This document shows positions 12,292-63,953 of a stretch of 64,000 nt of DNA, in pieces. Origin of the DNA: an uncultured delta proteobacterium. GTDB taxonomy: Bacteria > Myxococcota_A > Polyangia > Polyangiales > Houyiibacteriaceae. The notes under the pieces were generated by a model, which was not told the DNA's origin, made no database searches, and saw nothing but the letters and a program-made list of their open reading frames with translations. The stretch is from assembly GCA_963817725.1 (NCBI GenBank), contig CAWFPD010000010.1, positions 413,104 through 477,103 on the forward strand. Reading direction: 5' to 3'. Position 1 is the first letter of the stretch; each line of letters starts with the position of its first letter. A program made the translations under genes and the position numbers.

Positions 12292-12354
12292 GTTCCTTCT
12301 CTCCTGCGCGCAAGGATTGCCGGCCGTACGAGGAGCGGCCAGCCGTACTTGGGC

Positions 12355-12383
12355 TTGACACTGTATGTAACGTTCGTTACAGG
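12355..12383 (+). promoter_or_regulatory. Candidate promoter plus palindromic TetR-type operator of the enoyl-CoA hydratase operon
   Basis: TTGACA (12355-12360), 17-nt spacer, TACAGG. The spacer contains the perfect inverted repeat TGTAAC-GTTC-GTTACA (12366-12381). GGAG lies 7 nt before the ATG at 12417. Confidence 0.4.
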
Positions 12384-12416
12384 ACTCGAACAAGAGCCCG
12401 AACGCGGAGAAGCTAC

Positions 12417-13852: not shown

Positions 13853-13856
13853 GGAG

Positions 13857-17189: not shown

Positions 17190-17195
17190 GCTGAC

Positions 17196-19224: not shown

Positions 19225-19229
19225 GCAGG

Positions 19230-21919: not shown

Positions 21920-22081
21920 GCGAACCAACCCCTCGAAGGCACGGATCGCCTCCTTTTCCTGGTTATCTCCTTGTAAACTTGTTGATGGGGGCCGCGCAAC
22001 CCGGCGCGGCAGGACCCAAGGCAACCCAGGGCGCCCGAAGCCCTCTTTACGCGCCTCCGAAGAGAAACTATACGGCATCCG

Positions 22082-46228: not shown

Positions 46229-47257
46229 TCACGCAGGACGTCGAAGCACGGTTGCTTCGAGGTGCTGACAGGTTCTCTCGATGCCCTCGTCCACACTGAC
46301 GGCCGGCTCGTAGCCGAGCTCCGTGCGTGCCTTGTCGATGCTGAAATAGTGATGGGTGCACATGTAGCGGATGGCGAACCGGGTCAGTCCGTCCTCCGCA
46401 TTGAGGGTGCCGCCTTTGAGTGTGTCGAAGCCCTCTTTGACGGCCGCGATCGCGTACACGAGCCCTTTGGGAACGCGATACTTGATCGGCGGGAAACCCA
46501 GGCGGGCGGCCACTTTGCGGACGAAGTCCCAGAATGGCATGGGCTCACCGTTGGTGATGAAATACGCCTGCCCTGCGGCGGTGCTTTGCGGACCGCCTGC
46601 GCGTAGAGCCTCATCGGCGAGAATTACCGCATCGACCAGGTTGCTGACGTAGGTGTAGTCCGACAGCCACACGCCGCGGCCGATCTGGACGCGGAGCTGA
46701 CCGGACTGGGCCTTGTCGAGCAGCGCGGGCATGAAGCGGTTGTCGCCCGGGCCGAAGATCACGTGAGGACGAAGAGCGCAAGTGGCTACGCCATCCTTGC
46801 CGTTGGCTGCAAGGACGCGTTTTTCAGCCTCGATCTTGCTGTCTGCGTAGGGCGCCTGCGAGACCGTCGAGTACGGTAGACTCTCGTCCCCGTTTTCGAT
46901 GTCTTTGCCTTCGTAGACCACGCTTCCCGAGCTGATGTAAATGAAGCGCGGAACCCGGTGGCGCTGAGCGCCCTGCAGCATGTTCTCCGTACCCCCGAGA
47001 TTCACCCCCCAGACGACATCCTTTTTGTTCTGCTTGGTATGCACGATCGAGGCATTGTGGATGATCGTGTCGACACCACGGCATGCATCGATGACCGCCG
47101 CTTCGTCGGTAATGTCGATGCGTCGGTAGTCGACTCCGTCGACCGGGCATTCGGGGGACACATCGATCACGATGACCCGGTCGCCACGAGCCTGTAGACC
47201 CCGTGCGATCGCTGCACCGACAAACCCGCAGCCGCCCGTCACCAAGCTCACCGTCAT
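46229..47257 (-). CDS. 3beta-hydroxysteroid dehydrogenase/isomerase family; NSDHL/ERG26-like sterol-4alpha-carboxylate 3-dehydrogenase (decarboxylating) candidate
   Basis: 342 aa. By eye it is colinear with human NSDHL: VTGGCGFVG, SSGSVVYEGKDIENGDESLPY, YADSK, LRPHVIFGPGD, AYFITNGEPMPFWDFVRKV, HYFSIDKARTELGYEP. Confidence 0.75.
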   Translation of the reverse strand: MTVSLVTGGCGFVGAAIARGLQARGDRVIVIDVSPECPVDGVDYRRIDITDEAAVIDACRGVDTIIHNASIVHTKQNKKDVVWGVNLGGTENMLQGAQRHRVPRFIYISSGSVVYEGKDIENGDESLPYSTVSQAPYADSKIEAEKRVLAANGKDGVATCALRPHVIFGPGDNRFMPALLDKAQSGQLRVQIGRGVWLSDYTYVSNLVDAVILADEALRAGGPQSTAAGQAYFITNGEPMPFWDFVRKVAARLGFPPIKYRVPKGLVYAIAAVKEGFDTLKGGTLNAEDGLTRFAIRYMCTHHYFSIDKARTELGYEPAVSVDEGIERTCQHLEATVLRRPA

Positions 47258-47260
47258 GTT

Positions 47261-47935
47261 CTACTCCACGGTGCCAAAGATGATGTCGGGCAGGGGTGTG
47301 ATCGACGCATAATTGCCCGAACGCATGCTGTGGTGGTGCCTGTCGTGCTTGGCCGCGAGCACTCCCAGCGTCTTCAATGGAAAACGGGGAACATCGACCC
47401 CCGCATGGTTGAGAATGTTGAATGCCGTGTACGTGATGAAGAGAGCAGCCAGCGTATAAATGTGCACGCCCCCTACGAGTGCCACCGATCCAAAGAACAA
47501 GCTGAGACCGAGGACGGTTTCGATCGGATGAAGCAAGAGGCTATCGATGACGCGGGGGTTTCGCGCTGCGTGATGGACCGAATGCACCGCTCGAAGGAGC
47601 TTCCACTCGTGGAATGGATAGCGGTGCATGAAGTAGTACGCGAAATCGTAGATCAAAATGACGGTCGCGGCCTCGAGCACGTACCGCCACCAAGCGATGG
47701 GGTGGTCGTAGTACAAATAGTCGCCGAACCCGAACATCAGGAAGAAGATCAGCGCAATGGAGACCGTCGAGTTCAGAGCGACCCGCCAGTAAAGCTCACG
47801 GTCGCTCTTCGAGCGATGGGGGTCGTCGCTAATCAAATACGCGTGACCAGCCGGGGAACGGTAGGCGTACGCGAGGACGGCGATGGCCAAACCGGCCGAT
47901 GCATAGCTCGCGAGAATGACGAACAAGGCCTTCAT
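47261..47935 (-). CDS. Fatty-acid-hydroxylase superfamily di-iron membrane oxygenase; MSMO1/ERG25-like (sterol desaturase family)
   Basis: 224 aa with three His boxes (HRYPFH, HSVHH, HDRHHH). The C-terminal block HAGVDVP…HDRHHHSMRSGNYASI…DIIFGT resembles C-4 methylsterol oxidases. Confidence 0.7.
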   Translation of the reverse strand: MKALFVILASYASAGLAIAVLAYAYRSPAGHAYLISDDPHRSKSDRELYWRVALNSTVSIALIFFLMFGFGDYLYYDHPIAWWRYVLEAATVILIYDFAYYFMHRYPFHEWKLLRAVHSVHHAARNPRVIDSLLLHPIETVLGLSLFFGSVALVGGVHIYTLAALFITYTAFNILNHAGVDVPRFPLKTLGVLAAKHDRHHHSMRSGNYASITPLPDIIFGTVE

Positions 47936-47963
47936 GGGAGCTTCCGGATGATCATGTTACCAC

Positions 47964-49127
47964 CTAAGGAACCATTCTGAGAATCAGCGTACCGGCGACC
48001 ATGAAGGCGAACACCGCCACGGCCGCCAACTGGGAAGCACGCTTGCTGAAGGAAGATTTCACGGCGGACGCTGCGCGAAACGACGTGGAGTTACCGTCGA
48101 GCTCGAGGGGCTCCGCGCTCGCGGGGATGCTTTGGCAAAGGAGGGCGACGCCTCGCCCGACGTCCCTGTCCGACAGGGCCTCGTGCGTGCGCATGTGGAC
48201 CTTGCCCGTTTTCACGTGTGCCATGCAGGAACCGCAAAAACCGGATTGGCACGAGTGAGCCGGGTTCAGACCGGCGACCTGGGCGCACTCGAGCAGCGTC
48301 TTTCCCTCGATGTACGGTACGGTGCGAGAGCGCCCGCCGAGCCAGAGGCTGAAGGCTGGGGGCGAATCAAACGAAGGGAAGCCTGATCGAGCGTCTTGGA
48401 GCCGATCCGGGTCGACCGGGGAAACGAAGCGCTCGACGTGAATGAGCTCTTCATGCGCGCCGGCGTCGATGAGGACGGCCTCGATGAGGTTCATGAACGG
48501 CTCTGGCCCGCACAAGTAGAACTCGGCGACTTCCGTGTCGTGCAACAAGGCGCGCACGTCTCGGGCCGAGAGCTGGCCCCGGTCGGAATCTAGATGATGT
48601 TGAAGGACGACTCTGCCTGGATGCGCCGCCACGATACGGACGAGCTGCTCCGCGTAGATGACCGATGCCCGATCGCGATTCGCGTAAAGCATGGTGATGG
48701 GGCGTTTGGTCGTGGCGAGCGCGCTCTTGAGCAAAGAAATGATTGGCGTGATCCCACTGCCACCAGCGAACAGGAAAAGCGGCGTGCTCGAGCGCGTCTC
48801 GGGATCCAGAACGAAACGGCCCTCGGGAACGCTTGCGCAAATCGAGTCACCGGCTTTGAGCTGGTCGTTCATCCAATTGGATGCGCGGCCCCCTTCTACC
48901 CTTTTTACGGCAATTTCCAGCGGCTCGCCGAGTTCGACACAGCTCGAAAGGGAATAGCAACGGCTGATCTGCCAGCTTTCCCAGGGGAGCCTCAAAGTCA
49001 GGTGCTGGCCCGCACGGTATTGAAACTCGGCCTCGAGCCGTTTTGGAACCGACAGTCGAAAGGAGCTGCAGTCCGCCGTCTCGCGGGTAACTGCCGATAT
49101 CGTCAAGGTGTGGAGCGGGACTTCCAT
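47964..49127 (-). CDS. FNR-type FAD/NAD(P)H reductase fused to a plant-type [2Fe-2S] ferredoxin, with a C-terminal membrane anchor
   Basis: The start MEVPLHTL overlaps the TetR stop. It has the RCYSLSS (FAD) and GGSGITP (NAD) motifs and the cluster ligands CQSGFCGSC…C. The last ~25 aa are hydrophobic (LAAVAVFAFMVAGTLILRMV). Confidence 0.8.
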   Translation of the reverse strand: MEVPLHTLTISAVTRETADCSSFRLSVPKRLEAEFQYRAGQHLTLRLPWESWQISRCYSLSSCVELGEPLEIAVKRVEGGRASNWMNDQLKAGDSICASVPEGRFVLDPETRSSTPLFLFAGGSGITPIISLLKSALATTKRPITMLYANRDRASVIYAEQLVRIVAAHPGRVVLQHHLDSDRGQLSARDVRALLHDTEVAEFYLCGPEPFMNLIEAVLIDAGAHEELIHVERFVSPVDPDRLQDARSGFPSFDSPPAFSLWLGGRSRTVPYIEGKTLLECAQVAGLNPAHSCQSGFCGSCMAHVKTGKVHMRTHEALSDRDVGRGVALLCQSIPASAEPLELDGNSTSFRAASAVKSSFSKRASQLAAVAVFAFMVAGTLILRMVP

Positions 49128-49807
49128 CAAGTCTCCGAAAGTCCGGCGAGTTGCAAAGCGGTGGCGAGGCGCTCCGGCCGACAGTCGCTCCGAAGCAAAT
49201 GCCGGATGGCGGCATCCACGACGCGGTCCGGCGGCTCTTTGGCGCCCCGATTCATCCACAGCGCGAGCCTGACTTGCTGGGTGGCGATGGCCATTCGCGC
49301 CATCAGCTCCGGATCCTCATCGATGAAGGTTCCTTCTCGAATTCCTCTCCGAAACAAGTCGGCAAACAATGCAAGGCCGGCACCCAACGCCTCGACCTGC
49401 TCGGGGCTGCGCAAGAGCTCGACGGTCGACCATGCCGTCACCTCCTTGAGCTGCATCCGGGTGAAGTCATGGCGGTGCATGAAGAATCGGAGCTGCGCGC
49501 GTGTTCCCGCCACCAACTGTTCCAGCACCGGCATGTCCTCTTGGATCACGCCCTGCACGAGCCCCATCACTTCGGCGAGCCGGCGTCGGTGCACTGCGCG
49601 GTAGATTTCCCATTTCGACTCGAGCACTCCGTAGAGAGTCGTCAGAGAGACCCCCGCTTCAGCCGCAATCCGCTGCACCCTCGTGGCTTCGTAGCCGTCG
49701 TCCCCGAAGACTCGCTCCGCGGCGTCGAGAATGGCTTCTCGGTAGAGCTCTCGCTTTTTGTCCCTGAGATTTTGCTGCGGGCTTGCTGGAGCGACGGAGG
49801 CCGGCAT
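49127..49807 (-). CDS. TetR/AcrR family transcriptional regulator
   Basis: 226 aa. The HTH region is REAILDAAERVFGDDGYEATRVQRIAAEAGVSLTTLYGVLESK. Confidence 0.85.
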   Translation of the reverse strand: MPASVAPASPQQNLRDKKRELYREAILDAAERVFGDDGYEATRVQRIAAEAGVSLTTLYGVLESKWEIYRAVHRRRLAEVMGLVQGVIQEDMPVLEQLVAGTRAQLRFFMHRHDFTRMQLKEVTAWSTVELLRSPEQVEALGAGLALFADLFRRGIREGTFIDEDPELMARMAIATQQVRLALWMNRGAKEPPDRVVDAAIRHLLRSDCRPERLATALQLAGLSET

Positions 49808-51963: not shown

Positions 51964-51985
51964 GCGGCTCTAGGTTTTGCGGGCT

Positions 51986-53257
51986 ATGAGGTCCCGTGCT
52001 ACCCGACGCAACCCGTTGGCCATGGCCGCACCCCCGCCACACCGTCCTCGCCTCGTCCGATGGCTCAACCGATTGGGACCCGTGGTCGCATCTCGCTGGC
52101 CGTCCCTCGACCCGGACGACATCATCCGTACCGCAGCGCGAAGGGCCAAGTCCGACGAGCTCGGCGATCATGGCTTCATGGAGAGGCTTCCCGTCTTGGC
52201 GGAAGCGGTGGAGCGCGAGGCGAATCTTCATTGGATCGGCCGGTTGGCGGTGCGTGAGTCGTTGGTGACCGGGTTGGAAAGCCGGTTTTCCGTCTATCGC
52301 CGTCGCGCGCTCGAGCCCGAGCTCGCGGATGTGCCGATCGAAAAGCCCCTCTTCATCGTGGGCTTCCCACGGACGGGAACGACGATCCTCTTCAATTTGC
52401 TGGCGCAGGATCCGGCCAATCGGGCGCCTCTCGGATGGGAAGTTCAGTTTCCCGACCCTCCACCCGAGCCCGAAGCCTATTCGAGCGACCCCAGAATCGA
52501 ACGCGCTCGCAAATATTTCGGCCAGATGGATACGATGGCGCCCACGCTTGCTTCGATCCACGAGGTGGGCGCCGAGCTTGCTCAGGAGTGCATGCCGATC
52601 ATGGCGCATACGCTCCTGAGCCCGCAGCCAAGCATTGCGTACAACATTCCCGGCTATCAGGACTGGGTCGACCTTCAAGACGCGGCCCCCGCCTACATCT
52701 ATCACCGCCACTTCCTCGAGCATCTACAGAGCCGGTACATGAAAGAGCGCTGGGTGCTCAAGAGCCCAGTGCATTTGGCAACGCTCGACGCGTTGCTCCG
52801 TGAGTATCCGGACGCCAGGCTGATCTTCACGCATCGAGATCCGGTCAAAACGATTCCATCTCTCGCGAGCTTGGTCTATACGGTGCGCGGCATCGTGAGC
52901 GATTCCGTCGATCCGAGACGGATCGGCCCGGAGCAATTCGAGTGGTGGGCCAAGGCGCTCGATCACGCCATGCAGGTGCGTGCAAGACATCCCGACAAGG
53001 CGGACCATTTCATGGACATTCATTTCGAGGAGGTGATCGCCGATCCCATCGCAGCCCTTCGCCGCGCCTATGACCACTTTCAGATGCCGTGGTCGCAGGA
53101 GGCCGAGGATCGAATGCGTGCCTTCTTGGCGGCGAACCCGCGAGACAAGCACGGTGCGCACCGGTACGCCCTCGAGGACTTCGGCCTCGAGCTCGGCGCG
53201 ATCCGCGAGCGATTCGCCGACTACTGCAAGCGTTTCGACGTCCCCTTGGCGCTCTGA
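51986..53257 (+). CDS. Sulfotransferase family protein (Sulfotransfer_3 / mycobacterial Stf-like)
   Basis: It has the PAPS-binding loop PLFIVGFPRTGTTILFNLLAQDP, preceded by the family-typical N-terminal helical region (…LAEAVEREANLHWIGRLAVRESL…). The start is uncertain (TTG 51977, ATG 51986 or 52022). Confidence 0.75.
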   Translation: MRSRATRRNPLAMAAPPPHRPRLVRWLNRLGPVVASRWPSLDPDDIIRTAARRAKSDELGDHGFMERLPVLAEAVEREANLHWIGRLAVRESLVTGLESRFSVYRRRALEPELADVPIEKPLFIVGFPRTGTTILFNLLAQDPANRAPLGWEVQFPDPPPEPEAYSSDPRIERARKYFGQMDTMAPTLASIHEVGAELAQECMPIMAHTLLSPQPSIAYNIPGYQDWVDLQDAAPAYIYHRHFLEHLQSRYMKERWVLKSPVHLATLDALLREYPDARLIFTHRDPVKTIPSLASLVYTVRGIVSDSVDPRRIGPEQFEWWAKALDHAMQVRARHPDKADHFMDIHFEEVIADPIAALRRAYDHFQMPWSQEAEDRMRAFLAANPRDKHGAHRYALEDFGLELGAIRERFADYCKRFDVPLAL

Positions 53258-53323
53258 CTGGTTCCTGTAAGTCGCCGAATCCATTGACAGCTCTTGGCCG
53301 GAAGGCTAGGAACGAAAAACAGA

Positions 53324-54916
53324 ATGACTATTCCGAATCAGGTCGAGCACGGCGCGCATCATGCTGGCGACCGCACGCACATCGAGTGCATCGACCCGGC
53401 GACCCGAGAACGCCTCGGCCTGGTCCGGGTCGACACGGCCGGGGATGTCGAGGCCGCAGTCGCACGTGCCCAAGCCGCCCAGAAACAGTGGCGCAAGACC
53501 TCGTTCGAAGAGCGTCGCGAGGTGCTCCGCAAGCTCATGGCCTACACGGTCGAGCACAAAGACGAAATCTGTCTCACCATCCAGCGAGATTCGGGCAAGA
53601 CGCGGGAGAACGCCCTGCTCGGCGAGATCTGGACGACCTGCGAGAAGTTTCGCTGGATCATCAAGAATGGGGAGAGGCACCTTCGCCCAGAGCGGGTGTC
53701 CTCCGGGCTCCTCGTCCACAAGAAGGCGCGGTTGGAGTTCCATCCCCTGGGTGTCGTGGCCGCGATCATTCCCTGGAACTACCCGTTCCAGAACATGGTC
53801 AATCCGATCATTCCGGCGTTGATGACTGGCAACGCGATCGTAATCAAGCCTTCCGAATGGGTCGCATGGTCTAGCCAGCGGTTCGTGGACGCGTTTCGAG
53901 GTGTCATCGCCGACTCAGGACACGACCCCGATTTGATCCAGGTCGTGCAGGGATACGGGGCCACGGGCGCGTCGCTCGTGCGCTCCCCAGTGGACATGAT
54001 CTTGTTCATAGGCTCGGTAAAAAACGGCCGGCGCGTAATCGAAGGCAGCGCCGAGCGCGTCACGCCAGTGGTGATGGAGCTTGGCGGCAAGGACGCCTTC
54101 ATCGTTTGCGACGATGCAGACCTCGAACAGGCGCTCCACGCCGCGCTCGCCGGGTGCTACGTGAATTGTGGACAGAATTGTGTCGCCTCGGAGCGTATTC
54201 TCGTTCACGACAGCATCTACGACGAGTTCGAGCGTCGAGCCGCTACGCTGGTGACCGGGCTTCGGCAAGGCAACGGCAGGGAAGCTCTAGTCGACGTCGG
54301 AGCCATCATCACTCCACTCCAGCTCGACGTCATCGACGACGCGGTGCGAGGGGCAATTGCGCAAGGCGCTCGTCTGGTGGCTGGCGGAAAGCGGACGCGG
54401 ACCGACCAGGGTGACTACTTCGAGCCCACCATCTTGGCCGACGTGACGCCCGAGATGGACATTGCCCAAGAGGAAGTATTCGGACCGGTCATGCTTCTCA
54501 TGCGCTTCGGGGACGACTCCCAGGCGGTCGAGATTGCCAACAGCGTATCCTATGGGCTTTCATCCTCGGTCTTTTCGAAGGATCGTCGTCGAGCGCGCAA
54601 GATTGCCGAGGAGCTCGAAACGGGAATGTCGGCGATCAACGAATTCGGAGGCATCACCTACATGGCCCAAGACCTCACGTTTGGTGGCGTCAAAGCATCG
54701 GGCTACGGCAGGATGAACGGACGCGAGGGTTTGCGCTCGATGTGCAACATCAAGGCGGTCATCGACGATCGAATTCCCATCCATCGCGCAAACGAGATGT
54801 ATCCCGTGGGTCCGGCCCTCTATTCGACCTTCAGCGGTGTGATCGACCTGGTCTACGGAAGAAGCTTCAAACGCCGCTGGCAGGGGCTGATGAAGCTGCT
54901 GCGACGAAAGCCGTAG
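53324..54916 (+). CDS. NAD(P)+-dependent aldehyde dehydrogenase
   Basis: It has ALDH motifs: WNYPF, the catalytic VMELGGKDA glutamate region, a NCGQNCVASER cysteine region, and EEVFGPV. Confidence 0.88.
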   Translation: MTIPNQVEHGAHHAGDRTHIECIDPATRERLGLVRVDTAGDVEAAVARAQAAQKQWRKTSFEERREVLRKLMAYTVEHKDEICLTIQRDSGKTRENALLGEIWTTCEKFRWIIKNGERHLRPERVSSGLLVHKKARLEFHPLGVVAAIIPWNYPFQNMVNPIIPALMTGNAIVIKPSEWVAWSSQRFVDAFRGVIADSGHDPDLIQVVQGYGATGASLVRSPVDMILFIGSVKNGRRVIEGSAERVTPVVMELGGKDAFIVCDDADLEQALHAALAGCYVNCGQNCVASERILVHDSIYDEFERRAATLVTGLRQGNGREALVDVGAIITPLQLDVIDDAVRGAIAQGARLVAGGKRTRTDQGDYFEPTILADVTPEMDIAQEEVFGPVMLLMRFGDDSQAVEIANSVSYGLSSSVFSKDRRRARKIAEELETGMSAINEFGGITYMAQDLTFGGVKASGYGRMNGREGLRSMCNIKAVIDDRIPIHRANEMYPVGPALYSTFSGVIDLVYGRSFKRRWQGLMKLLRRKP

Positions 54917-56509
54917 ATGCAGCACTACGAGTACATCGTGGTCGGCGGTGGTTCGGCCGGTTGCATCGTGGCAGCAGAGCTTGCCAAAGACGGTGTAACA
55001 CGCGTGCTACTGCTCGAGAGCGGACCTGCCGCGGAGGATCACCCCGAGACGCTCGTTGCGCACGGGTACAAAGAGGCGTTCGTCAACGACGCGGTGATGG
55101 GCGAGCGTTTCTCCGTACCTCAGGAGCATGCCGGAAGACAACGGGTCTTTGCCGGGACGGGAACCGTCATGGGCGGAAGCGGTTCGGTCAACGGCATGGT
55201 CTACACGCGGGGTGCGCGGCAAGACTACGCCGAGTGGCCAGTCGGATGGCATTGGGATGACGTCGTCCCCGATTTCGAGGCAATCGAGCGACGGATCAGG
55301 CCCCACCGCCGTGCTCCGACGCAATGGACCGAAGCATGTATCGCCGCCGCGCAGGCGCACGGCTTCGACCTCAAAAAGGATCTCAACGATGGCGATATGA
55401 GCAACGTCATCGGATACGAATGGATGTCTTACGAGGAAGAGACGCGGCGCAGCTCGTACGTTGCCTTCATCAAAGATCCGGGTGAGCGCCCGAATCTCAC
55501 GGTGCTCCCGCAGGCTCGCGTCGATCGGATCGTCTTCACGGTCGATGCAAGAGCAAGAGCAGTGGAGTTCGAGCACCGAGGAGCGCTCGAGCGCGCGGAG
55601 GCAGCCCGGGAGATCGTTCTTTGCGCAGGCGCGCTTGAGACTCCGAAGCTCTTGATGCTCTCCGGAATTGGCCCGGCAGCGCACTTGCGCTCATTCGGCA
55701 TACCGGTCGTCGCCGATCGGCCGAGTGTCGGGGCCGGGCTCCACGATCATCCGAACGTGCCCATCTTCTTCAAGACGCGCCGGGACATCGACTGCTTCTA
55801 TCCTCAGCTCTACAGCTTTTTCCGCACGAATCCCGCCTCCGGCCTGCCTCCTTCGCAAAGTGATACCTGCTACGTCTACTGGCCGGCTCCATCCGCCATG
55901 CGTCAAATGATGCAGCGCATGCTTCCACCAAAGCTCATCCCGCATCGGTTGTACGGTCCTCGCTCGCGGGCGTGGACCCGCTCCATCATCGGCGGAGCAT
56001 TCAAGATCGGTGCGCTGCAGCGGTTCACCGACCACATGTTCGGCATCATCTTGATTCTTGGAAAGCCGAAGAGCCGAGGCACTCTTCGCCTCCAGTCGAC
56101 CGATGTGAACGAGCAGGCTCTAATCGATCCCGCCTACTACTCGGACCCGCAAGACATGGACACCATGGTGCGAGGTGTGCGCATAGCCCGCGGGATTGGC
56201 GGTGCTAGCGGTCTGTCAGCCTGGCGCCCCAAGGAGCTCATGCCAGGGCCCCGCGTTCAGAGCGACGACGCGGTCAGGCGGTACGTCCGCAAGAACACGA
56301 TCACCACCTATCATTTCGCGGGAACCTGTCGCATGGGAGAAAGCGAGCCCGATGCAGTCGATCCCCAACTTCGCCTGCGCGGAGTGCGGGGGCTCAGAAT
56401 CGCGGATGCCTCGGTGATTCCCTGGACACCCGTCTCTGCCCTCAACGCGCCGAGCATGCTGATCGGCTACCGCGCAGCTCGACTGATCGAGGCGGAATCC
56501 GGCCGGTAA
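54917..56509 (+). CDS. GMC family FAD-dependent oxidoreductase
   Basis: 530 aa with N-terminal YEYIVVGGGSAGCIVAAELA, GGSGSVNGMVY and the C-terminal HFAGTCRMG…RIADASVIP. It starts immediately after the ALDH stop. Confidence 0.88.
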   Translation: MQHYEYIVVGGGSAGCIVAAELAKDGVTRVLLLESGPAAEDHPETLVAHGYKEAFVNDAVMGERFSVPQEHAGRQRVFAGTGTVMGGSGSVNGMVYTRGARQDYAEWPVGWHWDDVVPDFEAIERRIRPHRRAPTQWTEACIAAAQAHGFDLKKDLNDGDMSNVIGYEWMSYEEETRRSSYVAFIKDPGERPNLTVLPQARVDRIVFTVDARARAVEFEHRGALERAEAAREIVLCAGALETPKLLMLSGIGPAAHLRSFGIPVVADRPSVGAGLHDHPNVPIFFKTRRDIDCFYPQLYSFFRTNPASGLPPSQSDTCYVYWPAPSAMRQMMQRMLPPKLIPHRLYGPRSRAWTRSIIGGAFKIGALQRFTDHMFGIILILGKPKSRGTLRLQSTDVNEQALIDPAYYSDPQDMDTMVRGVRIARGIGGASGLSAWRPKELMPGPRVQSDDAVRRYVRKNTITTYHFAGTCRMGESEPDAVDPQLRLRGVRGLRIADASVIPWTPVSALNAPSMLIGYRAARLIEAESGR

Positions 56510-56518
56510 CCACCGTCT

Positions 56519-57358
56519 TCAGCCCAGATCGTCGTCGATGAACTTGAGCGTGAGCTCGTTGAAGAGCTTTGGATACTCCACCATGACCCAGTGGCCGCAA
56601 TTGGAGATCAACAGGGTACGAGAGCGTGCGCAGCGAGAGGCGATCTTCGATGCGCCGCTGACCGGACAGAACTTGTCGTCGACTCCCCAGAAGCAAAGCA
56701 CGGGGCATTGGATCTCCGACAATCGGTCTTCCTGATTGGTGACCTGGATTCGAGCGATGTTGTCTTTGTGTTGTGTCTTTGCGACCTGATAGCGCTCTTC
56801 GATGATCTCATCGGTGATCTTCGACTCGTCGTGCAGCTGGAGCGTGAAAACCCTACGCATGGTTTCCTTGCTGATTCCTTCCTTATAGAGGACGCGAATC
56901 ATCGTCTTGATGCCCTGCATGTCCATGTAAGTCTCGCGACTTTCGAGGCCTCCAGGAGCCATCAATACCAGCTTGTCGACGAGCGCAGGGTAGTTGAGAG
57001 CAAGGGCAATCGCGATGGCGCCACCTTGGGAGTTTCCAATGACGGTGACGCGCTCGATCCCGAGAACATCGAGCAAGGCCTTGTACTGCGCGGCCACCTG
57101 ATCGAGATCGAAGGTGCCTTCCTCTGGCTTCGAGGAGTAGCCGTACCCCATCGTGTCCGGGACGATGGTTCGATACCCGTGCTCAGCGAGGAACGGATAG
57201 TTGCCTTTGAAGTTGCTCCATCCGCTCGCTCCAGGGCCGCTTCCGTGAACGAACAAGACCGCGCCCTCGGGGCCCGGCCCCGAGTCGTGATAGTGCATGG
57301 AGATGCCCGCGCCGACATCGGCGTACTCTCCCTCCGGAACTGCATCCACAACCATCAC
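56519..57358 (-). CDS. Meta-cleavage-product (C-C bond) hydrolase, BphD/HsaD/MhpC-like alpha/beta hydrolase
   Basis: 279 aa with FVHGSGPGASGWSNF, the nucleophile GNSQGG and C-terminal GHWVMVE. It starts 2 nt after the dioxygenase stop. Confidence 0.8.
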   Translation of the reverse strand: MMVVDAVPEGEYADVGAGISMHYHDSGPGPEGAVLFVHGSGPGASGWSNFKGNYPFLAEHGYRTIVPDTMGYGYSSKPEEGTFDLDQVAAQYKALLDVLGIERVTVIGNSQGGAIAIALALNYPALVDKLVLMAPGGLESRETYMDMQGIKTMIRVLYKEGISKETMRRVFTLQLHDESKITDEIIEERYQVAKTQHKDNIARIQVTNQEDRLSEIQCPVLCFWGVDDKFCPVSGASKIASRCARSRTLLISNCGHWVMVEYPKLFNELTLKFIDDDLG

Positions 57359-57359
57359 T

Positions 57360-58265
57360 TCACTCCTTGGCGCGCCGATACGCCTTGGTGAGCAATTGCG
57401 GCGGGTGGTGACCCCATTCGCTCACCTTCCGGTGCGTCGTGGTCTCCCAGGTGCCGTCGTCGATCTCGATCGCGTCCGAGCCGAACTCGAAGTGAAATCC
57501 GGAGGGCGTATAGCCATAAAAAGAGAACATCTTGTCGTTGGGATGACGACCGAGCGTTTGATGCACCATGCCGCCGCCAAAGAGAAAGCGATCGTAGCAC
57601 CTGCCGACCTCGTCCATCGACTTCGCCTGCACCATGAAATGGTGGATGCGTTTGTGCTGGCCTTTGGCAAACGCGAGGGAATGGTGTCGAGGGTTGGCGT
57701 GCATGAAGGTGACGTCGATGTCGTGGCCGAAGTACTCGCACCGGATGTAGTCGCTGAGCCTGAGGCCGAGCATCGTCGAATAGAAAACCTCGTGCTCGTG
57801 TTGGTCGCGCGATAGAAGCACGACGTGTCCGAGGCCCCGCTCGTCGGCGACGAATCCCGATGGCACGACCTGCGAAACGAAGGGCTCTTCGGCCATGGCC
57901 GGACCGTAATACACTTCGTTCGGATTTCCTGCGGGATCCTCGAAGCGAATCAGGCCTTCCACGTTTCGCCGGGACGCCTGGTCGGCGCTGCCGTCGGTCA
58001 CCCGGTGACCTGCAGCCGTCAGACGCTGCTTGATGTCCGCCAGGGCGGCCGGCCCCTCGACCTCCCAACCCACCGCTCCGAGGTCGTCTGCGGGCCCGTG
58101 CTCGAGGAAGAAGCGCTGACGATGACCGTCCATGCGCAACGAAAAACCCTCGTCTGCGCGGCGATCGACGACCTGGAGGCCGAGAACCTTCGCGGCAAAG
58201 GTCTCCCACGCTCCGAGATCGCTGACCTCGAATACCAGATATCCGAGCTGCTTCACCGCACTCAT
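57360..58265 (-). CDS. Type I extradiol ring-cleavage dioxygenase, BphC/HsaC-like (two VOC domains)
   Basis: The start is taken at MSAVKQLGYLVFEVSDL. The metal-ligand contexts are LGHVVL, FMHANPRHHSLAF and GRHPNDKMFSFYGYTPSGFHFEFG. Confidence 0.82.
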   Translation of the reverse strand: MSAVKQLGYLVFEVSDLGAWETFAAKVLGLQVVDRRADEGFSLRMDGHRQRFFLEHGPADDLGAVGWEVEGPAALADIKQRLTAAGHRVTDGSADQASRRNVEGLIRFEDPAGNPNEVYYGPAMAEEPFVSQVVPSGFVADERGLGHVVLLSRDQHEHEVFYSTMLGLRLSDYIRCEYFGHDIDVTFMHANPRHHSLAFAKGQHKRIHHFMVQAKSMDEVGRCYDRFLFGGGMVHQTLGRHPNDKMFSFYGYTPSGFHFEFGSDAIEIDDGTWETTTHRKVSEWGHHPPQLLTKAYRRAKE

Positions 58266-58324
58266 TTGCTTAGCCTCGGCGCGCATCATAGTACGGAGCC
58301 GCCATCTGGCTATGGAGAAACTCG

Positions 58325-59026
58325 ATGGAATCGAAAACGAGGTCTGCTGGTCCCACGGTCCCCACGGTCGCCGTGATCGGCTTGGTGGTAATCGGCGGCA
58401 CGCTGTTCCACATCTGGCTGCATCACCGCGTCCATGGAACGTACAACGTCACGCAAATAGGCCTGGCGTTCTTCTTGGTGATCAACGTGCTCGTCAACTG
58501 GTGGGAGATCGCATTGCTGGTCTGCCAAGACCAGATTCGTGCGGAATACGAGGCGTTCAAAGAACCCTATTGCGGACGCGAGCTCGAATGTGTGGGCAAA
58601 GTATTCATGAGGCCGATTCCGGTGCTGAAGGTCTTGTCGTTCCGGCAATGGACCACCGTTTGGTCGAGCTATTCGCTATTCGATCCGGGCTACTCCGACC
58701 GTCGCTCATTCGGCTACAACATCGACGTTGGAAACGGGTTTACGACCATCATTCCTTCGGTTTTTTTCGTTTTCGGAATGACCTACGAGCTCGTGCCCGC
58801 GCGCATCCTCGGCATCGTTGGTGTCGTCATCTTTTGGCAGATGTTTTACGGAACGGCGCTCTACTTCTTTCAGTTCTTTCATAACGGGCGACACAAGGGG
58901 CACTCCGTCCGCGACTTGATCCTGTTCGTTGGAATCACCAACCTGACCTGGCTGATCTTCCCCATGTGGGGAATGACGACGAGCGTGCAATTGATCCTCG
59001 ACGGATCCTACGGCCTGCTCCGCTGA
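58325..59026 (+). CDS. EBP/EXPERA-like four-TM membrane protein (sterol Delta8-Delta7 isomerase-like)
   Basis: 233 aa. A by-eye alignment to human EBP gives W-x2-Y-x3-D-x2-Y (VWSSYSLFDPGY vs LWKEYAKGDSRY), QMFYGTALYFFQFFH vs QIYGDVLYFLTEH, and NLTWLIFP vs NALWLVLP. Confidence 0.5.
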   Translation: MESKTRSAGPTVPTVAVIGLVVIGGTLFHIWLHHRVHGTYNVTQIGLAFFLVINVLVNWWEIALLVCQDQIRAEYEAFKEPYCGRELECVGKVFMRPIPVLKVLSFRQWTTVWSSYSLFDPGYSDRRSFGYNIDVGNGFTTIIPSVFFVFGMTYELVPARILGIVGVVIFWQMFYGTALYFFQFFHNGRHKGHSVRDLILFVGITNLTWLIFPMWGMTTSVQLILDGSYGLLR

Positions 59027-60459
59027 GCGCTCGTGCCCGCGTTCGAGATCGGCCGATCGTCGGCTACGGCAGAAGGCTGAATGATCTTGTGCGCCCCCGC
59101 TCGCAACATCATTCGCTGCATCTGGTTGAAATCGGCAATGGCGTCCGGATTGTCGCGAGGCAGCGGATAAGGTGCGCCGATCGCGTGGGCTGCAACCAGG
59201 CCGGACATGAACGATAGATCGTGACCGCCCTCGGGCGTGGTGAAGGTCCCGCAGTAGTACATTCCGCGCTTCCCTTGGAGGAACCGCATCATCGACATGA
59301 TGAGTAGGTTGCGAAGCGACATCGTGTGTGTGGGGTGTGGAAGATCGATGCGCTTTTGGACCGCTCCAAGGTCCTTGTCGGAATTGAAGGTCACCAGCAT
59401 GGGAATGCCTTTGTCCTTCGTGCTCGGATTTTGGGCGGAGATCACGAACGTACATTCGAGCGAACCGGCGTCGGTGATCTCCGAATACGTGTTGAACTCG
59501 GAGAGAATTCTCTCGCGATGTGATTCGGGAAGGATGCTGGTGTCGGAATGAATCACGAATTTAGAGAAAGTCGGATCGACGTCATCGACATACTGCGCCC
59601 CACCGAGAAGTAGTCGCTGCAGCCAGCTCGGAGACTCGATTGAGCTCAACGCGGAGTCCGCGTCACAGGCAAAGACCACTTCATCGACCTCGTACGATCG
59701 ACTTTTCTTGTCTTCCACCACGAATCGACCGCCACGTTCCCGCACCCGGGTCACCTCGTGGTCGGTATGCACGTGATCCGAGAATGCGGCGGTCATCCGA
59801 TCGAAAACCTGACGGGGCGCACCGTCCCAAGTGCCCATTTGGGTTGGCTCCTCGAGCGGGACGATGCTCTCGAGTAGAGGAAGAATGACCGCAGGCACGC
59901 CGCGCATCGACGTCGTGATGAAGCTGGCGCAGTGAATCGGAACGAAGATGGTGTCCCAAAACTCACTGGAGATTCCGAAGACGCGCGCCAGCCAATAGAG
60001 AGGGATGAAGTTGAGCGGATTGAAATACGAGAAGTGATAGAGCGAATCGTGCCGATTCTTCCGCAGGAACAGACCGTTTACCCTGGTGACGAAGCGCACC
60101 AGCTTTTTCCATCGTCGAAACTGAACAGCGAAACGCCGGTGGAGCGCGGTTTGGCCGTCTTGACAGAAATGGCCATTGGGTGTCTGGACGAAGTAAGAGA
60201 TCGGGAGCGTCTCGATGCCCACCCCGAGCTCTTGCAAGAGCCGCTCGTAGTTGTGGTAGTACATCTGCGGCCAGGCCACGACGAGGAGCGGGGACTCCGC
60301 GTACCCGCCACCTTCCAAAGGCCAACGAAACGTCTTGGCGTTTCCTCCGAGTGCCGGTCCCTTTTCGAAGAGCTCGACTTCGTATCCCGCGCGGTGCAGC
60401 GACCACGCCGCTCCGACTCCGGCGATGCCGCCCCCGATGATTCCTATTGTTCGCGTCAT
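59008..60459 (-). CDS. NAD(P)/FAD-binding oxidoreductase (amine-oxidase/phytoene-desaturase superfamily, COG2907-like)
   Basis: 483 aa with the N-terminal dinucleotide fold IGIIGGGIAGVGAAWSLHRAGYEVELFEKGPALGGNA. It is the last gene of the CYP51 operon. Confidence 0.7.
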   Translation of the reverse strand: MTRTIGIIGGGIAGVGAAWSLHRAGYEVELFEKGPALGGNAKTFRWPLEGGGYAESPLLVVAWPQMYYHNYERLLQELGVGIETLPISYFVQTPNGHFCQDGQTALHRRFAVQFRRWKKLVRFVTRVNGLFLRKNRHDSLYHFSYFNPLNFIPLYWLARVFGISSEFWDTIFVPIHCASFITTSMRGVPAVILPLLESIVPLEEPTQMGTWDGAPRQVFDRMTAAFSDHVHTDHEVTRVRERGGRFVVEDKKSRSYEVDEVVFACDADSALSSIESPSWLQRLLLGGAQYVDDVDPTFSKFVIHSDTSILPESHRERILSEFNTYSEITDAGSLECTFVISAQNPSTKDKGIPMLVTFNSDKDLGAVQKRIDLPHPTHTMSLRNLLIMSMMRFLQGKRGMYYCGTFTTPEGGHDLSFMSGLVAAHAIGAPYPLPRDNPDAIADFNQMQRMMLRAGAHKIIQPSAVADDRPISNAGTSAQRSRP

Positions 60460-60480: not shown

Positions 60481-61740
60481 CTACCCGCGTCTCGGCCGCA
60501 GGTCGACGATCGGTCCGTGCCGCAGGGTATGGCAGGCGCCTTTGTAAATGCCAAGGGATTCGTAGACCGCCGCCGTCATCATCACGGTACGCGTTTGCCC
60601 CGTGACCGACGCTGGAAATCCGCTGTGAACGAAGGCAAACGAAAGCTCGAACTCTGGGTTCGCCCAGCCACCCGCGCCTCCCAGGCCGAAGTGTCCGAAG
60701 GCATTGGGCACGTCCATCAAGAACGCATCCGCGCGGTGGTATCCGAGCTTCCAATGAAGTGGGTACCCGATCACCCTGTCGGCACGCTTCGTTTGGACCA
60801 CCGCCGCCTCACCGATGATCCGCTGCGAAACCAATCGAATACCGTCGATCTCCCCGCCTACGGAAAGTGCCGCGTACATCTTGGCGAGCGAACGCGCTGT
60901 CGCTACCCCGTTCATCGCTGGCAAGCAAGCCTTCCAAAAGGCCGGATGTGTGAAAAGCTCCTTCGCGTAACGAGGGGTCAAACCGCGGCGGCAGAGCGAT
61001 CGGAGCTTCGGTGCACGAACCCAAAAAGGTACTTGGTAGTCGGTGGTGAGCGGGGCTGGGTTCCGTCTTTGCAGAGGAGGAAGCCCTATGAAATCGGGAA
61101 TTCTATCCATCTGTGATTCGGCATTGCCGATGTAGAGGCCGTCGAGCTTCAGCGGCAGTGCGATGCGTTGCTTCACGAACTCCGGAACCGTCTGTCCCGA
61201 AATGCGGCGGACGAGCTCGCCAACCATCCAACCGAAGGTCATGGCCTGATACGCATTGGCCGTGCCCGGAGTGAAGTCGGGCTTGGCTCTCTCTAGACGG
61301 GAAACGATGAGGTCCCAATCCAAGATGTCCGTGAGCTCATGGACGAGGTGGATGAGCTTGTGGAGCCCTGCCTGATGCGACAACAGCTGCCGAACGGTGA
61401 TCTGCTCTTTGCCATTGCAACCGAACTCCGGCCAGTACCGCGCAACGGGCGCATCGTAGGCGATGAGACCAGCGGTCGCGAGCATGTGGATTGCCGTCGA
61501 GATGATCCCTTTGGTACCGGAGTAGCAGATCGACATGGTGTCTCGCTTCCAGGGCGACCCGTCTTTGCGAGCCGAACCTCCCCAGATGTCCACCACGGGC
61601 TTTCCTTGGAGGAATACGGTTGCGGCAGCCCCACCCCCGTAGTGAACGATCTGCTTGCGCATGAGCTTTGCGACCGGCTCGAATCGCGGCTCGTACGTTC
61701 CTTTGATTGCGATGTCGTGATCAGTCACCTGCCCCTCCAT
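60481..61740 (-). CDS. Beta-lactamase-fold serine hydrolase (EstB/class C-like)
   Basis: 419 aa with S-x-x-K in ICYSGTKGIISTAIHML, followed by LLSHQAGLH. It is a paralog of the 19230-20531 gene. Its start overlaps the upstream stop (TAATG). Confidence 0.8.
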   Translation of the reverse strand: MEGQVTDHDIAIKGTYEPRFEPVAKLMRKQIVHYGGGAAATVFLQGKPVVDIWGGSARKDGSPWKRDTMSICYSGTKGIISTAIHMLATAGLIAYDAPVARYWPEFGCNGKEQITVRQLLSHQAGLHKLIHLVHELTDILDWDLIVSRLERAKPDFTPGTANAYQAMTFGWMVGELVRRISGQTVPEFVKQRIALPLKLDGLYIGNAESQMDRIPDFIGLPPLQRRNPAPLTTDYQVPFWVRAPKLRSLCRRGLTPRYAKELFTHPAFWKACLPAMNGVATARSLAKMYAALSVGGEIDGIRLVSQRIIGEAAVVQTKRADRVIGYPLHWKLGYHRADAFLMDVPNAFGHFGLGGAGGWANPEFELSFAFVHSGFPASVTGQTRTVMMTAAVYESLGIYKGACHTLRHGPIVDLRPRRG

Positions 61741-62561
61741 TAGCCTGGTGAGATCGGCCCGAATATTCGGGCGGCGAAGTCCATCAAGAACAGCATGATC
61801 ATGCTCGCAGACAAAGCCGCGGCCATCGTCGTCTTCAGGCTCCAGTCGGTATCGCGTCCTTCGTCCAGCCAGTAGAAGATGGGGAAGCTTGCAACGAAGT
61901 AGAGCGAATAGAAGAAGGAGCCGTAGGACAGCATTCGCTCCATGTCTCTATAGTAGAACTGACTCTCGATCCAAGGATTGGCCATCGCCCTGGTTTCCAT
62001 CCAAGCCCAAAAATACGCGACCGCTAGAAGCAGTACCGGCCAAACGAGGTTTCCCACGGGAAGCCTCGACGTCCGGATCCTCCTCAGAACGACCACCGCC
62101 GTCGTGTGATAGGTCATGAAGTATGCCTGGGTGAGCAGGTACATCACAATCGGCACTCGTTGCTGTCCTGATCCGACCAAGGTCGCGTCCAGGTTGAAAT
62201 CGATCATCGGGTAGTCGTAAACCATTCCGAGGATGTCGAAGAAGTACTCCGAGCCGAAGTAGTTCGCGGCCACGTTGAAAATCGCAATGTAGAGATTGGC
62301 CTTGAGCCAGTACGTCTGATACCAGGGTCGGCCGAGCGGCGTTTCGTCACGGATGAGAGCGGGCACGACGACCAGAGGAAGGGCCACTGCGAGGCCGATG
62401 GTAATGAAACCCCATTCGCCAATGCGATCGGTGATGCCCATCCCCATCACCAGCGCCATGATCCCCATCCAAATCGGCGAATAGACGAGGAAGAACTTCT
62501 CCCCCCAGGCCTTGCTCGAATTCGCCGAGAACCAACGGGGGCCATCAGCGGATGTCGTCAC
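61740..62561 (-). CDS. Cycloeucalenol cycloisomerase (plant CPI1)-like membrane protein
   Basis: 273 aa with a GTG start 12 nt after the CYP51 stop. It is a polytopic protein. The blocks KAWGEKFFLVYSPIW, YWLKANLYIAIFNVAANYFGSEYFF and SLYFVASFPIFYWLDE match my recollection of the CPI family. That similarity is unverified. Confidence 0.55.
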   Translation of the reverse strand: MTTSADGPRWFSANSSKAWGEKFFLVYSPIWMGIMALVMGMGITDRIGEWGFITIGLAVALPLVVVPALIRDETPLGRPWYQTYWLKANLYIAIFNVAANYFGSEYFFDILGMVYDYPMIDFNLDATLVGSGQQRVPIVMYLLTQAYFMTYHTTAVVVLRRIRTSRLPVGNLVWPVLLLAVAYFWAWMETRAMANPWIESQFYYRDMERMLSYGSFFYSLYFVASFPIFYWLDEGRDTDWSLKTTMAAALSASMIMLFLMDFAARIFGPISPG

Positions 62562-62573: not shown

Positions 62574-63953
62574 CTACGGGATTCTCCTGCGGTACCTGAT
62601 CCGAATGGGGGGCTTGGGTCCGAGGACCAAACCCTGAAAGTCGGTTTCGATCGGATCGCCGACCAACTCGAAGTCATAGCGATTCAGCAGAGCCGCGATG
62701 ATCGTCTTGATCTGCAAGATGGCAAAGGCGTTACCCATGCACTTGTGCCGCCCACCTCCAAAGGAAATGTACGCGAACGGACGCTTGTCTTCTTCACGCC
62801 CGGGGCCATACCGATCCGGGTCGTATTCGAGCGCGTTCTTGAATACCTCGTCGTCGCGATGCGCCACCATGGGCGAGACGGCGACCCAGTTGCCCTTTTT
62901 GACCTGGTAGCCGAGGATCAGGCAGTCCTCGAGGACGGCTCGCAGCAGAATGAAGAGCGGCGGATGAATGCGGAGCGCCTCCTTGACTGCGCTTTCCGTC
63001 TTCTCCAGATCCCGAAGCGACTGAAAAGTGTAGCTCTCCTCGTCTGCGTAACGTGCACGGATCTCGTTTCGGACCTCCTCTAGGCACCGAGGATGACGCA
63101 ACAGCTCGATCAACGTCCAGGCCGTGGTGACGGAGCTCGTGTGATGGCCGGCGAACATGGCTGCGACGAGCATTCCCGTGATCTCGTGGTCGCTGAGCTT
63201 GCTACCATCCGAGTACTCCGCGTCCATCAAGGTCTGAAGGAAGTCTTCTCCTCGATAGCCCGACCGCTTCCGCTTTTCGACGATCTCGGAGACCATTTGC
63301 CCCAGGCGCTTGCGAGCTCGGTCACGGCGCCGGAACGCCGGGATGGGCAAGTAGGGATGAATGTAGCCCCATGCCACGATGCCGCGTTCCAGGTCGTAGT
63401 AGACCTTGGCAAACTCCTCGCTCATCTCATTGCGAAACTCTTTGCCGAGCAGGCAGCTGCTCGAGGTGAAGTTCGTGAGCATGCCGAAGAATGCCGAGGC
63501 CTCGATCTCGCCTTCCTCCCCCCAGTCGGCGATGATGTCTGCTGTCTCCCGCGCTACAATTTCGGTGTAGGTCCGCATGCGGTTGTTGCGAAGCGCTGGA
63601 TAGAGCATGTGCATTTGCTCGGCCATACGAGCAGGCTCGGCCCCGTAGGCGACCCCTTCACCGAATACCGGCACCATCATCTTGTAGGCCGCGTTTGGAC
63701 TGAGGACCTCGTCGGGCAGCCTGAAAAGCGCCTCGTGCGCCGCGGGCCCCGAGAAGAGGATCATGTCCTTACCAAACAGTTTGAATCTCCCGACGTGGCC
63801 GCACTCGTCGTAGGTCCGCTGTAGCAAACCGGTCGTGTCCTTCACGAAGGCGAGTGTGTGACCGATCAACGGCAGCCCGCCTTTGAGCCTCGGCGGCCTC
63901 TTGGCCTTGCCCGCAGTGATGGGGGTGGTCGTGGTTCGTGCTGGTGCCGTCAC
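62574..63953 (-). CDS. cyp51: Sterol 14alpha-demethylase, cytochrome P450 family 51
   Basis: 459 aa with a GTG start and GGAG upstream. By eye it is colinear with M. tuberculosis CYP51. Matches include the B' region VPVFGEGVAYGA, then WGEEGEIEASAFF…TSSSCLLGKEFR, YLPIPAFRRRDRAR, the CYP51 I-helix signature MFAGHHTSS, and the heme loop FGGGRHKCMGNAFA. Confidence 0.9.
   Translation of the reverse strand: MTAPARTTTTPITAGKAKRPPRLKGGLPLIGHTLAFVKDTTGLLQRTYDECGHVGRFKLFGKDMILFSGPAAHEALFRLPDEVLSPNAAYKMMVPVFGEGVAYGAEPARMAEQMHMLYPALRNNRMRTYTEIVARETADIIADWGEEGEIEASAFFGMLTNFTSSSCLLGKEFRNEMSEEFAKVYYDLERGIVAWGYIHPYLPIPAFRRRDRARKRLGQMVSEIVEKRKRSGYRGEDFLQTLMDAEYSDGSKLSDHEITGMLVAAMFAGHHTSSVTTAWTLIELLRHPRCLEEVRNEIRARYADEESYTFQSLRDLEKTESAVKEALRIHPPLFILLRAVLEDCLILGYQVKKGNWVAVSPMVAHRDDEVFKNALEYDPDRYGPGREEDKRPFAYISFGGGRHKCMGNAFAILQIKTIIAALLNRYDFELVGDPIETDFQGLVLGPKPPIRIRYRRRIP

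Follow-up and report, generated by a model that had tools for sequence, protein, structure and literature searches.

A remote relative of the sterol isomerase EBP encoded beside a CYP51 operon in an uncultured Polyangiales bacterium

What does a small membrane protein do when its gene lies beside a CYP51 operon in an uncultured Polyangiales bacterium, and how is it related to EBP, the human sterol Delta8-Delta7 isomerase? The gene in question occupies positions 58325..59026 on the plus strand of the stretch of DNA analysed here—64,000 nucleotides of contig CAWFPD010000010.1 (positions 413,104 to 477,103 of the forward strand, assembly GCA_963817725.1), hereafter called the window. Bacterial sterol pathways, those of Myxococcota especially, are used to trace the origin of eukaryotic sterol synthesis, and EBP is among the few steps called a eukaryotic invention without a bacterial homologue: Desmond and Gribaldo reported none (PMC2817430), and Hoshino and Gaucher inferred that EBP evolved within eukaryotes (PMC8237579). 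We find that the gene at 58325..59026 is genuine and that its product, which we call the EBP-like protein, is a remote, previously unannotated relative of EBP. Because related genes stand among sterol-synthesis genes in several unrelated bacteria, the protein is a probable bacterial sterol double-bond isomerase.

As read from the sequence, the open reading frame (ORF) starts with ATG, ends with TGA and encodes 233 amino acids, with a GGAG ribosome-binding site 7 nt before the ATG (58314..58317, plus strand); the start is supported by the conservation of the N terminus, MES.T, in relatives. It is the sole plus-strand gene between two minus-strand operons. Its 3' end overlaps by 19 nt (59008-59026) the gene for a 483-residue flavin adenine dinucleotide (FAD) oxidoreductase that ends the CYP51 operon, so that the length, the convergent arrangement and the overlap given in a preliminary description of this locus are all reproduced. 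On the 5' side, 35 nt away, lie divergent genes for a BphC/HsaC-like extradiol dioxygenase and a BphD/HsaD-like hydrolase. A scan for promoters and terminators around the gene gave nothing exceeding shuffle expectation.

The family around this protein is large and had gone unnamed. Close homologues number 246, nearly all of them 233 amino acids long and from Polyangiales/Myxococcales metagenome-assembled genomes (MAGs), and every named one is labelled "hypothetical protein"; an exhaustive search with a hidden Markov model (HMM) returned 339 family representatives at 50% clustering. Conservation was read from a 61-sequence family alignment (A2), whose members are 26-75% identical to the protein of the window. 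Scanning the protein against Pfam and NCBIfam with hmmscan returned no family at E ≤ 0.1, searches of PDB sequences by phmmer/hmmsearch with the single sequence and with profiles A1 and A2 gave nothing relevant (only a spurious clathrin, E 1.2), and in tblastn with human EBP—a query confirmed to be identical to PDB 6OHT—the match to the EBP-like gene was not significant (E 8.1). Comparison of whole families gave a different result. With hhalign, A2 aligned to 30 vertebrate EBPs at 77.7% (E 1.9e-5, target residues 110-224), while controls with reversed profiles and with the unrelated polytopic CPI family reached at most 0.5% and E values of at least 0.12. The HMM built from A2 gave a score to each of 120 vertebrate EBPs (maximum 26.7 bits), whereas none of 120 CPI membrane proteins exceeded 1.0 bit. 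Sub-threshold matches to PF05241, the EBP model of Pfam, occur in 10 of the 61 A2 members (best E 0.0029), whereas any other Pfam family appears in at most 2. The three EBP-similar blocks seen by eye in the preliminary description (W..Y...D..Y, YG...Y and N..W...P) are therefore real, standing above chance by hhalign and its controls. That description had also held that the lack of an EXPERA hit in profile searches would speak against the relationship; such a lack is literally true of the Pfam hmmscan but not of searches with the family profile. Membership of the EXPERA superfamily is, in our judgement, very probable.

The predicted structure points to EBP as well. An AlphaFold2 (AF2) model built from A2 reached a pLDDT (predicted local distance difference test score) of 96.0 and a pTM (predicted template modelling score) of 0.91. 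Model quality varied with alignment depth: with 20 close homologues the pLDDT was 73.8 and the conserved 117-137 stretch fell below 50, and human EBP was still the best Foldseek match of that shallow-alignment model. Searched against the PDB with Foldseek, the A2 model matched 8w0r_A (E 7.8e-4) and 6oht_A (E 1.4e-2), both with probability 1.00 and TM scores of 0.55-0.64. Human EBP was alone in being matched confidently; the next match had a probability of 0.20, no non-EBP chain exceeded 0.2, and no sigma-1 chain was in the Foldseek list. By AF2 and the Foldseek match to human EBP, the protein thus contains the four-transmembrane-helix (four-TM) core of EXPERA proteins. The four TM segments of the preliminary description become five, as in EBP, on the evidence of both AF2 and hydropathy: the hydrophobic helices span residues 14-37, 42-66, 129-154, 159-186 and 195-226. 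TM1 (58364..58435, plus strand, like all features of the protein given here; hydropathy 1.24) is the extra N-terminal helix shared with EBP, and TM2 (58448..58522) carries F50, N54, V57 and E61. The most conserved block, residues 109-141 (58649..58747), reads W..W..Y...D..Y....FGYNIDVGNGFTT and runs into TM3; TM4 (58799..58882) contains FWQMFYGTALYF, Y175-G176 and Y180, and TM5 (58907..59002) contains N206, W209 and P213.

Which of the residues that make EBP an isomerase are present? Alanine scanning has defined 11 determinants of EBP, namely H76, E80, W101, Y104, D108, R110, Y111, E122, T125, N193 and W196 (PMC4263179), and a proposal based on crystal structures has His76 protonate C9, Trp196, the cation-pi residue, stabilise the C8 cation, and Glu80, braced by Glu122, take the C7 proton, the H76A and E80A variants being inactive (PMC6549186). 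In its confident region, hhalign equates W113 of the EBP-like protein with W101 of EBP, Y116 with Y104, D120 with D108, Y123 with Y111, D134 with E122, N137 with T125, Y175-G176 with Y160-G161, Y180 with Y165, N206 with N193, W209 with W196 and P213 with P200. For TM2, hhalign in global mode at low mact pairs F50 with F69, N54 with G73, V57 with H76 and E61 with E80, and HMMER independently agrees. Eight of the 11 determinants are kept (E61, W113, Y116, D120, Y123, D134 in place of Glu, N206 and W209) and three are changed: His76 to V57, Arg110 to G122 and Thr125 to N137. The retained determinants are 95-100% conserved across the 61 members. D120 and W209 are present in all 61, as is N137; E61 is found in 60 and N206 in 58, D134 is Asp in 59 and Glu in the other 2, and N54 is Asn in 59. 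Acidic residues at EBP positions 80 and 108, conserved superfamily-wide (PMC4263179), are thus both present, as E61 and D120.

These alignments revise the earlier view of the active site. The preliminary description had placed N54 at His76 and N58 at Glu80, a register three residues off, which we reject: it gives the invariant E61 and F50 no partner in EBP, and both hhalign and HMMER set E61 against Glu80 (with F50 at Phe69). Among the three options offered there, a shifted alignment was the right one for both glutamates, since E61 corresponds to Glu80 and D134 to Glu122; the placing of the TM3 Glu in DVGNGF was sound, that position falling on D134, a conservative Asp. In the corrected register the Glu is not replaced by Asn, and the His alone is substituted at the catalytic pair, so that talk of substituted catalytic residues is right for His76 and overstated for Glu80 and Glu122, which are kept. 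As a possible replacement for His76 we also considered H33, a TM1 histidine present in 62% of members; it was rejected because helix positions, the only evidence used here, put it and E61 at opposite ends of the bilayer.

Among known systems, EBP (EC 5.3.3.5; PDB 6OHT, 8W0R) and its plant orthologue HYD1 are the closest, sharing the predicted five-TM fold, the three motifs, the residues corresponding to E80, D108, E122 (as Asp), N193, W196, W101, Y104 and Y111, and a place in the post-CYP51 sterol pathway. The EBP-like protein differs from EBP in its ~15% sequence identity, below PF05241 detection, in the exchange of His76 for Val/Ile, of Arg110 for Gly/Ser/Ala and of Thr125 for an invariant Asn, in the additional invariant Asn (N54) of TM2, in a TM2-TM3 loop ~30 residues longer with two additional helices, and in being bacterial. 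Lacking the defining His and escaping the Pfam model, it is not to be classed as an EBP orthologue. TMEM97 (the sigma-2 receptor) and TM6SF1/TM6SF2 share the four-TM EXPERA core and the acidic positions 80 and 108 (PMC4263179), but the EBP-like family keeps a much larger share of the EBP catalytic residues (the E122 equivalent, N193 and W196) as well as EBP's fifth, N-terminal helix, and no non-EBP chain passed the Foldseek probability given above. For the EBP step of the pathway fungi use the ERG2/sigma-1 receptor type of C-8 isomerase, and homology suggests as much for Plesiocystis pacifica (PMC2817430), but the fold of that type is unrelated and neither Foldseek nor tblastn finds a similarity. 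CPI1, encoded at the same locus, resembles the EBP-like protein in being small, polytopic and membrane-bound, and it rearranges the sterol nucleus through protonation and deprotonation, yet it shows no detectable profile similarity to the EBP-like family (hhalign 0.5%, E 0.12).

The genomic neighbourhoods of relatives tie the family to sterol synthesis. Relatives at least 61% identical have the whole neighbourhood in common, which is synteny inside one clade and carries little information by itself. Farther away, two Polyangiaceae MAGs (L046 and L047, 47-48% identity) carry a co-directional operon of CYP51, ERG4/ERG24 and the EBP-like gene, in which the sterol reductase is recognised as ERG24 (PF01222, E 6e-70) and the EBP-like gene follows after a 4-nt gap; the gene order matches the pathway order of C-14 demethylation, C-14 reduction and Delta8 isomerisation, and a squalene synthase, a Rieske oxygenase and an oxidosqualene cyclase (OSC) homologue lie downstream. 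In Paracoccaceae/alphaproteobacterial MAGs (L073-L075, 35-37% identity) the neighbours are a squalene epoxidase-OSC fusion, a CYP51-like P450, ERG24 and a Rieske oxygenase, along with a sterol methyltransferase (SMT) and an MMPL protein with a sterol-sensing domain. A Dehalococcoidia MAG (L079) has its EBP-like gene near Rieske, ERG24 and CYP51 genes, and on a metagenomic contig (P0121, 45% identity) two P450s, a short-chain dehydrogenase/reductase and a Rieske/KshA_C protein resembling SdmA are neighbours. Because sterol genes are rare in bacteria, their linkage to the family in at least four lineages whose cluster layouts differ speaks strongly for a role connected with sterols.

The window itself adds the operon on which the EBP-like gene converges, read on the minus strand in the order CYP51, CPI1-like gene, beta-lactamase-like gene and FAD oxidoreductase gene. 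The CYP51 sterol 14-alpha-demethylase (62574..63953) has Methylococcus CYP51 as its top phmmer match in the PDB (E 1e-137) and also matches M. tuberculosis CYP51B1 (E 1e-110). The CPI1-like cycloeucalenol cycloisomerase (61740..62561), a membrane protein of 273 amino acids, matches no Pfam family, and JGI gives many of its homologues that name; CPI1 has been reported in myxobacteria (PMC8237579). It is followed by a beta-lactamase-fold/LipL-like esterase (60481..61740; PF00144, E 9e-58; the NCBIfam LipL-like model is below cutoff) and by the convergent FAD amine-oxidase-like oxidoreductase of 483 amino acids (59008..60459; Pfam Amino_oxidase/NAD_binding_8; best PDB match LkcE, E 4e-17). About 10 kb from the EBP-like gene lies a second sterol-type operon, 46229..49259, also on the minus strand, comprising a 3-beta-hydroxysteroid dehydrogenase/ERG26-like dehydrogenase (46229-47257; PF01073, E 2.6e-61), an FA_hydroxylase of the ERG3/ERG25 superfamily (47261-47935; PF04116, E 2.4e-25) and an FAD/NAD/2Fe-2S reductase (47964-49259; FAD_binding_6/NAD_binding_1/Fer2). 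These genes and the sterol clusters of relatives link the EBP-like gene to the post-lanosterol/cycloartenol pathway. By tblastn, neither a canonical EBP nor a sigma-1/ERG2-type isomerase (human SIGMAR1 as query) was found in the window or in the relatives' loci searched. The preliminary description's view of an EBP/EXPERA-like membrane protein beside a CYP51 operon is in this way borne out by profile-profile alignment, fold and gene context.

Taken as a whole, we give a probability of roughly 0.5 to the reading that the EBP-like protein is a His-independent sterol isomerase of the EBP type, acting after CYP51 and most likely converting Delta8 to Delta7 sterols. By analogy with EBP, the sterol would enter a membrane-embedded cavity made by TM2-TM5, and the nuclear double bond of a Delta8 sterol would be moved to Delta7 via a C8 carbocation. 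An acid other than the His76 equivalent would protonate the double bond, W209 and N206 would stabilise the cation, and E61, braced by D134, would remove the C7 proton. With Val/Ile at the His76 position, the proton has to come from elsewhere: from the E61/D134 acid pair, perhaps, or from D120, or from a water molecule bound by N54 and N137, the two invariant Asn residues specific to this family. What the analysis shows is the EBP-type fold, the residue conservation and the family's linkage to sterol clusters; substrate, direction of reaction and identity of the acid are put forward by analogy.

Several observations weigh against this assignment. The position of His76, essential in EBP, is Val here and Ile/Val in 58 of the 61 relatives, and Arg110 is lost too, its position being Gly/Ser/Ala in the family. 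PF05241 fails even E 0.1 on the EBP-like protein and falls short of its gathering score, and the TM2 columns, which carry both the V57 and the E61 equivalences, have low per-column confidence. No C-14 reductase was found in the window. The cultured Myxococcota S. amylolyticus and M. rosea make lathosterol and cholesterol and have reported homologues of eukaryotic ring-double-bond enzymes (PMC12004948), so the EBP-like family is not the sole route in this phylum. The hosts of the family also reach beyond sterol clusters. A genome scan added Nocardia, Amycolatopsis, Haloechinothrix, Ketobacter, a gammaproteobacterium and Acidimicrobiia, including the sponge-associated Poriferisodalis. In Nocardia, Amycolatopsis and Haloechinothrix the gene and a TetR gene together make a unit of two, and sterol genes are absent within 10 kb; the same lack within 10 kb holds for the Acidimicrobiia checked (Poriferisodalis, L081) and several Myxococcota. 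The gammaproteobacterial member adjoins a MarR gene, and other distant members have housekeeping genes as neighbours. There is even a member in the anaerobic protist Paratrimastix pyriformis, a metamonad, and eukaryotic as well as actinobacterial members come without any sterol-gene context. Further eukaryotic members are found in the choanoflagellate Salpingoeca urceolata and, as a fragment, in the brown alga Scytosiphon, and a 172-member marine cluster has homeodomain, ankyrin and JmjC genes on the same contigs (marine picoeukaryotes). These actinobacterial, protist and other contexts imply that the family extends beyond organisms that make sterols de novo.

The loss of His76 combined with the gain of the invariant N54 and N137 suggests altered proton chemistry, and the protein could accordingly keep the fold and the pathway of EBP while carrying out a different carbocation-type reaction on the sterol nucleus, possibly with the recurrent FAD neighbour. 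Delta8 or Delta7 to Delta8(14) isomerisation would be an example, as would the handling of CYP51's Delta8,14-diene, the opening of the 9,19-cyclopropane ring where CPI1 is absent, or 5,6-epoxide hydration. A 30% homologue of the window's FAD oxidoreductase does adjoin the EBP-like gene in Paracoccaceae L073 and L074, so that two distant lineages share the association, and the L090 member has a related enzyme close by; the window operon is without ERG24; and bacteria make 8(14)-sterols, with an EBP-type route proposed for eukaryotes (PMC13277303). We nevertheless regard this reading as doubtful. The cation-stabilising Trp and Asn and the Glu/Asp pair are kept as in EBP, gene order in L046 (CYP51, ERG24, EBP-like gene) is that of the pathway, the window already encodes CPI1, and bacterial 8(14)-sterol formation has been assigned to an NTF2-family reductase.

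It is about as improbable that the EBP-like protein has no catalytic role and, in the manner of TMEM97 or TM6SF proteins, serves in the membrane as an EXPERA binder, sensor or chaperone for sterols or hydrophobic amines, escorting or sensing sterol intermediates instead of converting them. Such a role would sit well with the absent His76, with the member in an anaerobic protist, and with the TetR pairs and the MarR neighbour of the actinobacterial and gammaproteobacterial members, which are typical of ligand-responsive membrane functions. The intramembrane E61, D120, D134, N137 and N206, however, are 95-100% conserved among proteins that are 26-75% identical, a pattern that fits catalysis better; a gene 4 nt behind ERG24 in a biosynthetic operon argues in the same direction, as does the restriction of Foldseek matches above probability 0.2 to EBP. 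The conserved polar residues and the operon placement thus favour catalysis over binding. That the protein is unrelated to sterols, its EBP likeness being remote ancestry or convergence and its CYP51 neighbourhood incidental, is very unlikely: the synteny among close relatives is uninformative alone, most of the distant members have unrelated neighbours and the gene is alone on its strand between two minus-strand operons, but CYP51, ERG24, OSC or SMT lie within 10 kb in at least four lineages with differing architectures, and the functional residues of EBP are conserved. A steroid-degradation locus, which the adjacent BphC/BphD-like genes might indicate, was considered and rejected, since the far side and the region 10 kb upstream are biosynthetic (CYP51, CPI1 and ERG25/ERG26-like genes); no KshA- or KstD-type genes were seen at the window locus in a search that was not exhaustive.

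The most distant bacterial member (L090) lies between two non-CYP51 P450 genes, with TetR, ferredoxin and amine-oxidase genes just downstream; that amine oxidase, of 616 amino acids (13243-15093, plus strand), is related to the window's FAD oxidoreductase and stands ~2.5 kb from the family gene. FAD amine-oxidase-like (LkcE/CrtI-like) genes of this kind are sited at 59008-60459 (minus strand) in the window, at 7940-9244 (minus strand) in L073 and at ~11500-12900 (plus strand) in L074, and this recurrent oxidoreductase is a candidate for a bacterial sterol desaturase or reductase step. Some of the relatives' sterol clusters contain unusual fusions: the Paracoccaceae MAG L073 encodes the 1184-residue squalene epoxidase-oxidosqualene cyclase fusion (16455-20009, minus strand) and, in the same sterol cluster, a GPP34-P450 fusion (1186-3264, plus strand). 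In the Polyangiaceae MAG L046 the CYP51 ORF, as called from the first in-frame start, has 551 amino acids (6965-8620, plus strand). Among actinobacteria, the family gene comes right after the TetR gene with slight overlap in L052 (9309-10612), L086 (9417-10720) and L056/L068 (Nocardia, Haloechinothrix and Amycolatopsis), a pairing that suggests ligand-regulated expression; in Amycolatopsis palatopharyngis one contig carries two copies of the family locus whose gene calls are identical. The eukaryotic members are those of loci L084/L085 (10001-10738) and L087 and in proteins P0156, P0184 and P0395.

Other parts of the window deserve mention. The CPI1-like protein (61740-62561) implies that sterol synthesis in this uncultured Polyangiales lineage runs through cycloartenol, as in plants, and the operon at 46229-49259 resembles a module of eukaryotic type, complete with an electron donor, that would demethylate C-4 or desaturate C-5. 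Between the sterol-type blocks, 51977-58289 encodes a sulfotransferase, an aldehyde dehydrogenase, a GMC oxidoreductase, and the HsaD/BphD-like hydrolase and HsaC/BphC-like dioxygenase; the arrangement is kept in all close relatives and may mean sterol tailoring (e.g., sulfation) or ring cleavage beside biosynthesis. At 19230-22291 (minus strand) a 587-residue non-CYP51 P450, 25% identical to CYP51, accompanies a 30% paralogue of the esterase, so that a P450-esterase pairing occurs twice in the window, 40 kb apart, here and in the CYP51 operon. A low-GC (guanine-plus-cytosine) region without called genes at 6678-10868 (minus strand) contains tRNA-Ile(GAT), tRNA-Ala(TGC), 23S rRNA and 5S rRNA; no 16S rRNA lies upstream of this rRNA operon, where there is a protein gene at 11107-12393 instead, and the 16S rRNA gene appears to be unlinked.

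No account of an EBP-like or EXPERA family in bacteria turned up in the searchable literature; all that came to light was a remark about cryptic PF05241 proteins in some actinobacteria. When the Welander lab surveyed bacteria for sterol genes, its BLASTp cutoffs were 1e-30 to 1e-50, at which the EBP-like family cannot be detected. Tentatively, and with the odds against it, one may see in the family a bacterial branch of the EBP/EXPERA proteins that has gone unrecognised, does without His76, performs nuclear double-bond isomerisation in bacterial sterol synthesis and is sister or ancestral to eukaryotic EBP. If so, the published inference that EBP is without a bacterial homologue and arose within eukaryotes would be overturned (PMC2817430, PMC8237579), and the members from the choanoflagellate, the brown alga and marine picoeukaryotes could supply the Delta8-Delta7 isomerase that is "missing" from lineages, such as diatoms and pelagophytes, for which the absence of both EBP and ERG2 is reported.

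An EBP-fold protein in the sterol clusters of four bacterial lineages is a concrete candidate for an unassigned step of bacterial sterol synthesis. Should it prove non-catalytic, it would be a bacterial sterol-binding EXPERA protein, of which, to our knowledge, none has been described so far. On the side of mechanism, the family offers a natural experiment on EBP, asking whether its chemistry can proceed without His76, and on the side of evolution its HMM can be used against eukaryotes that are without a known C-8 isomerase.

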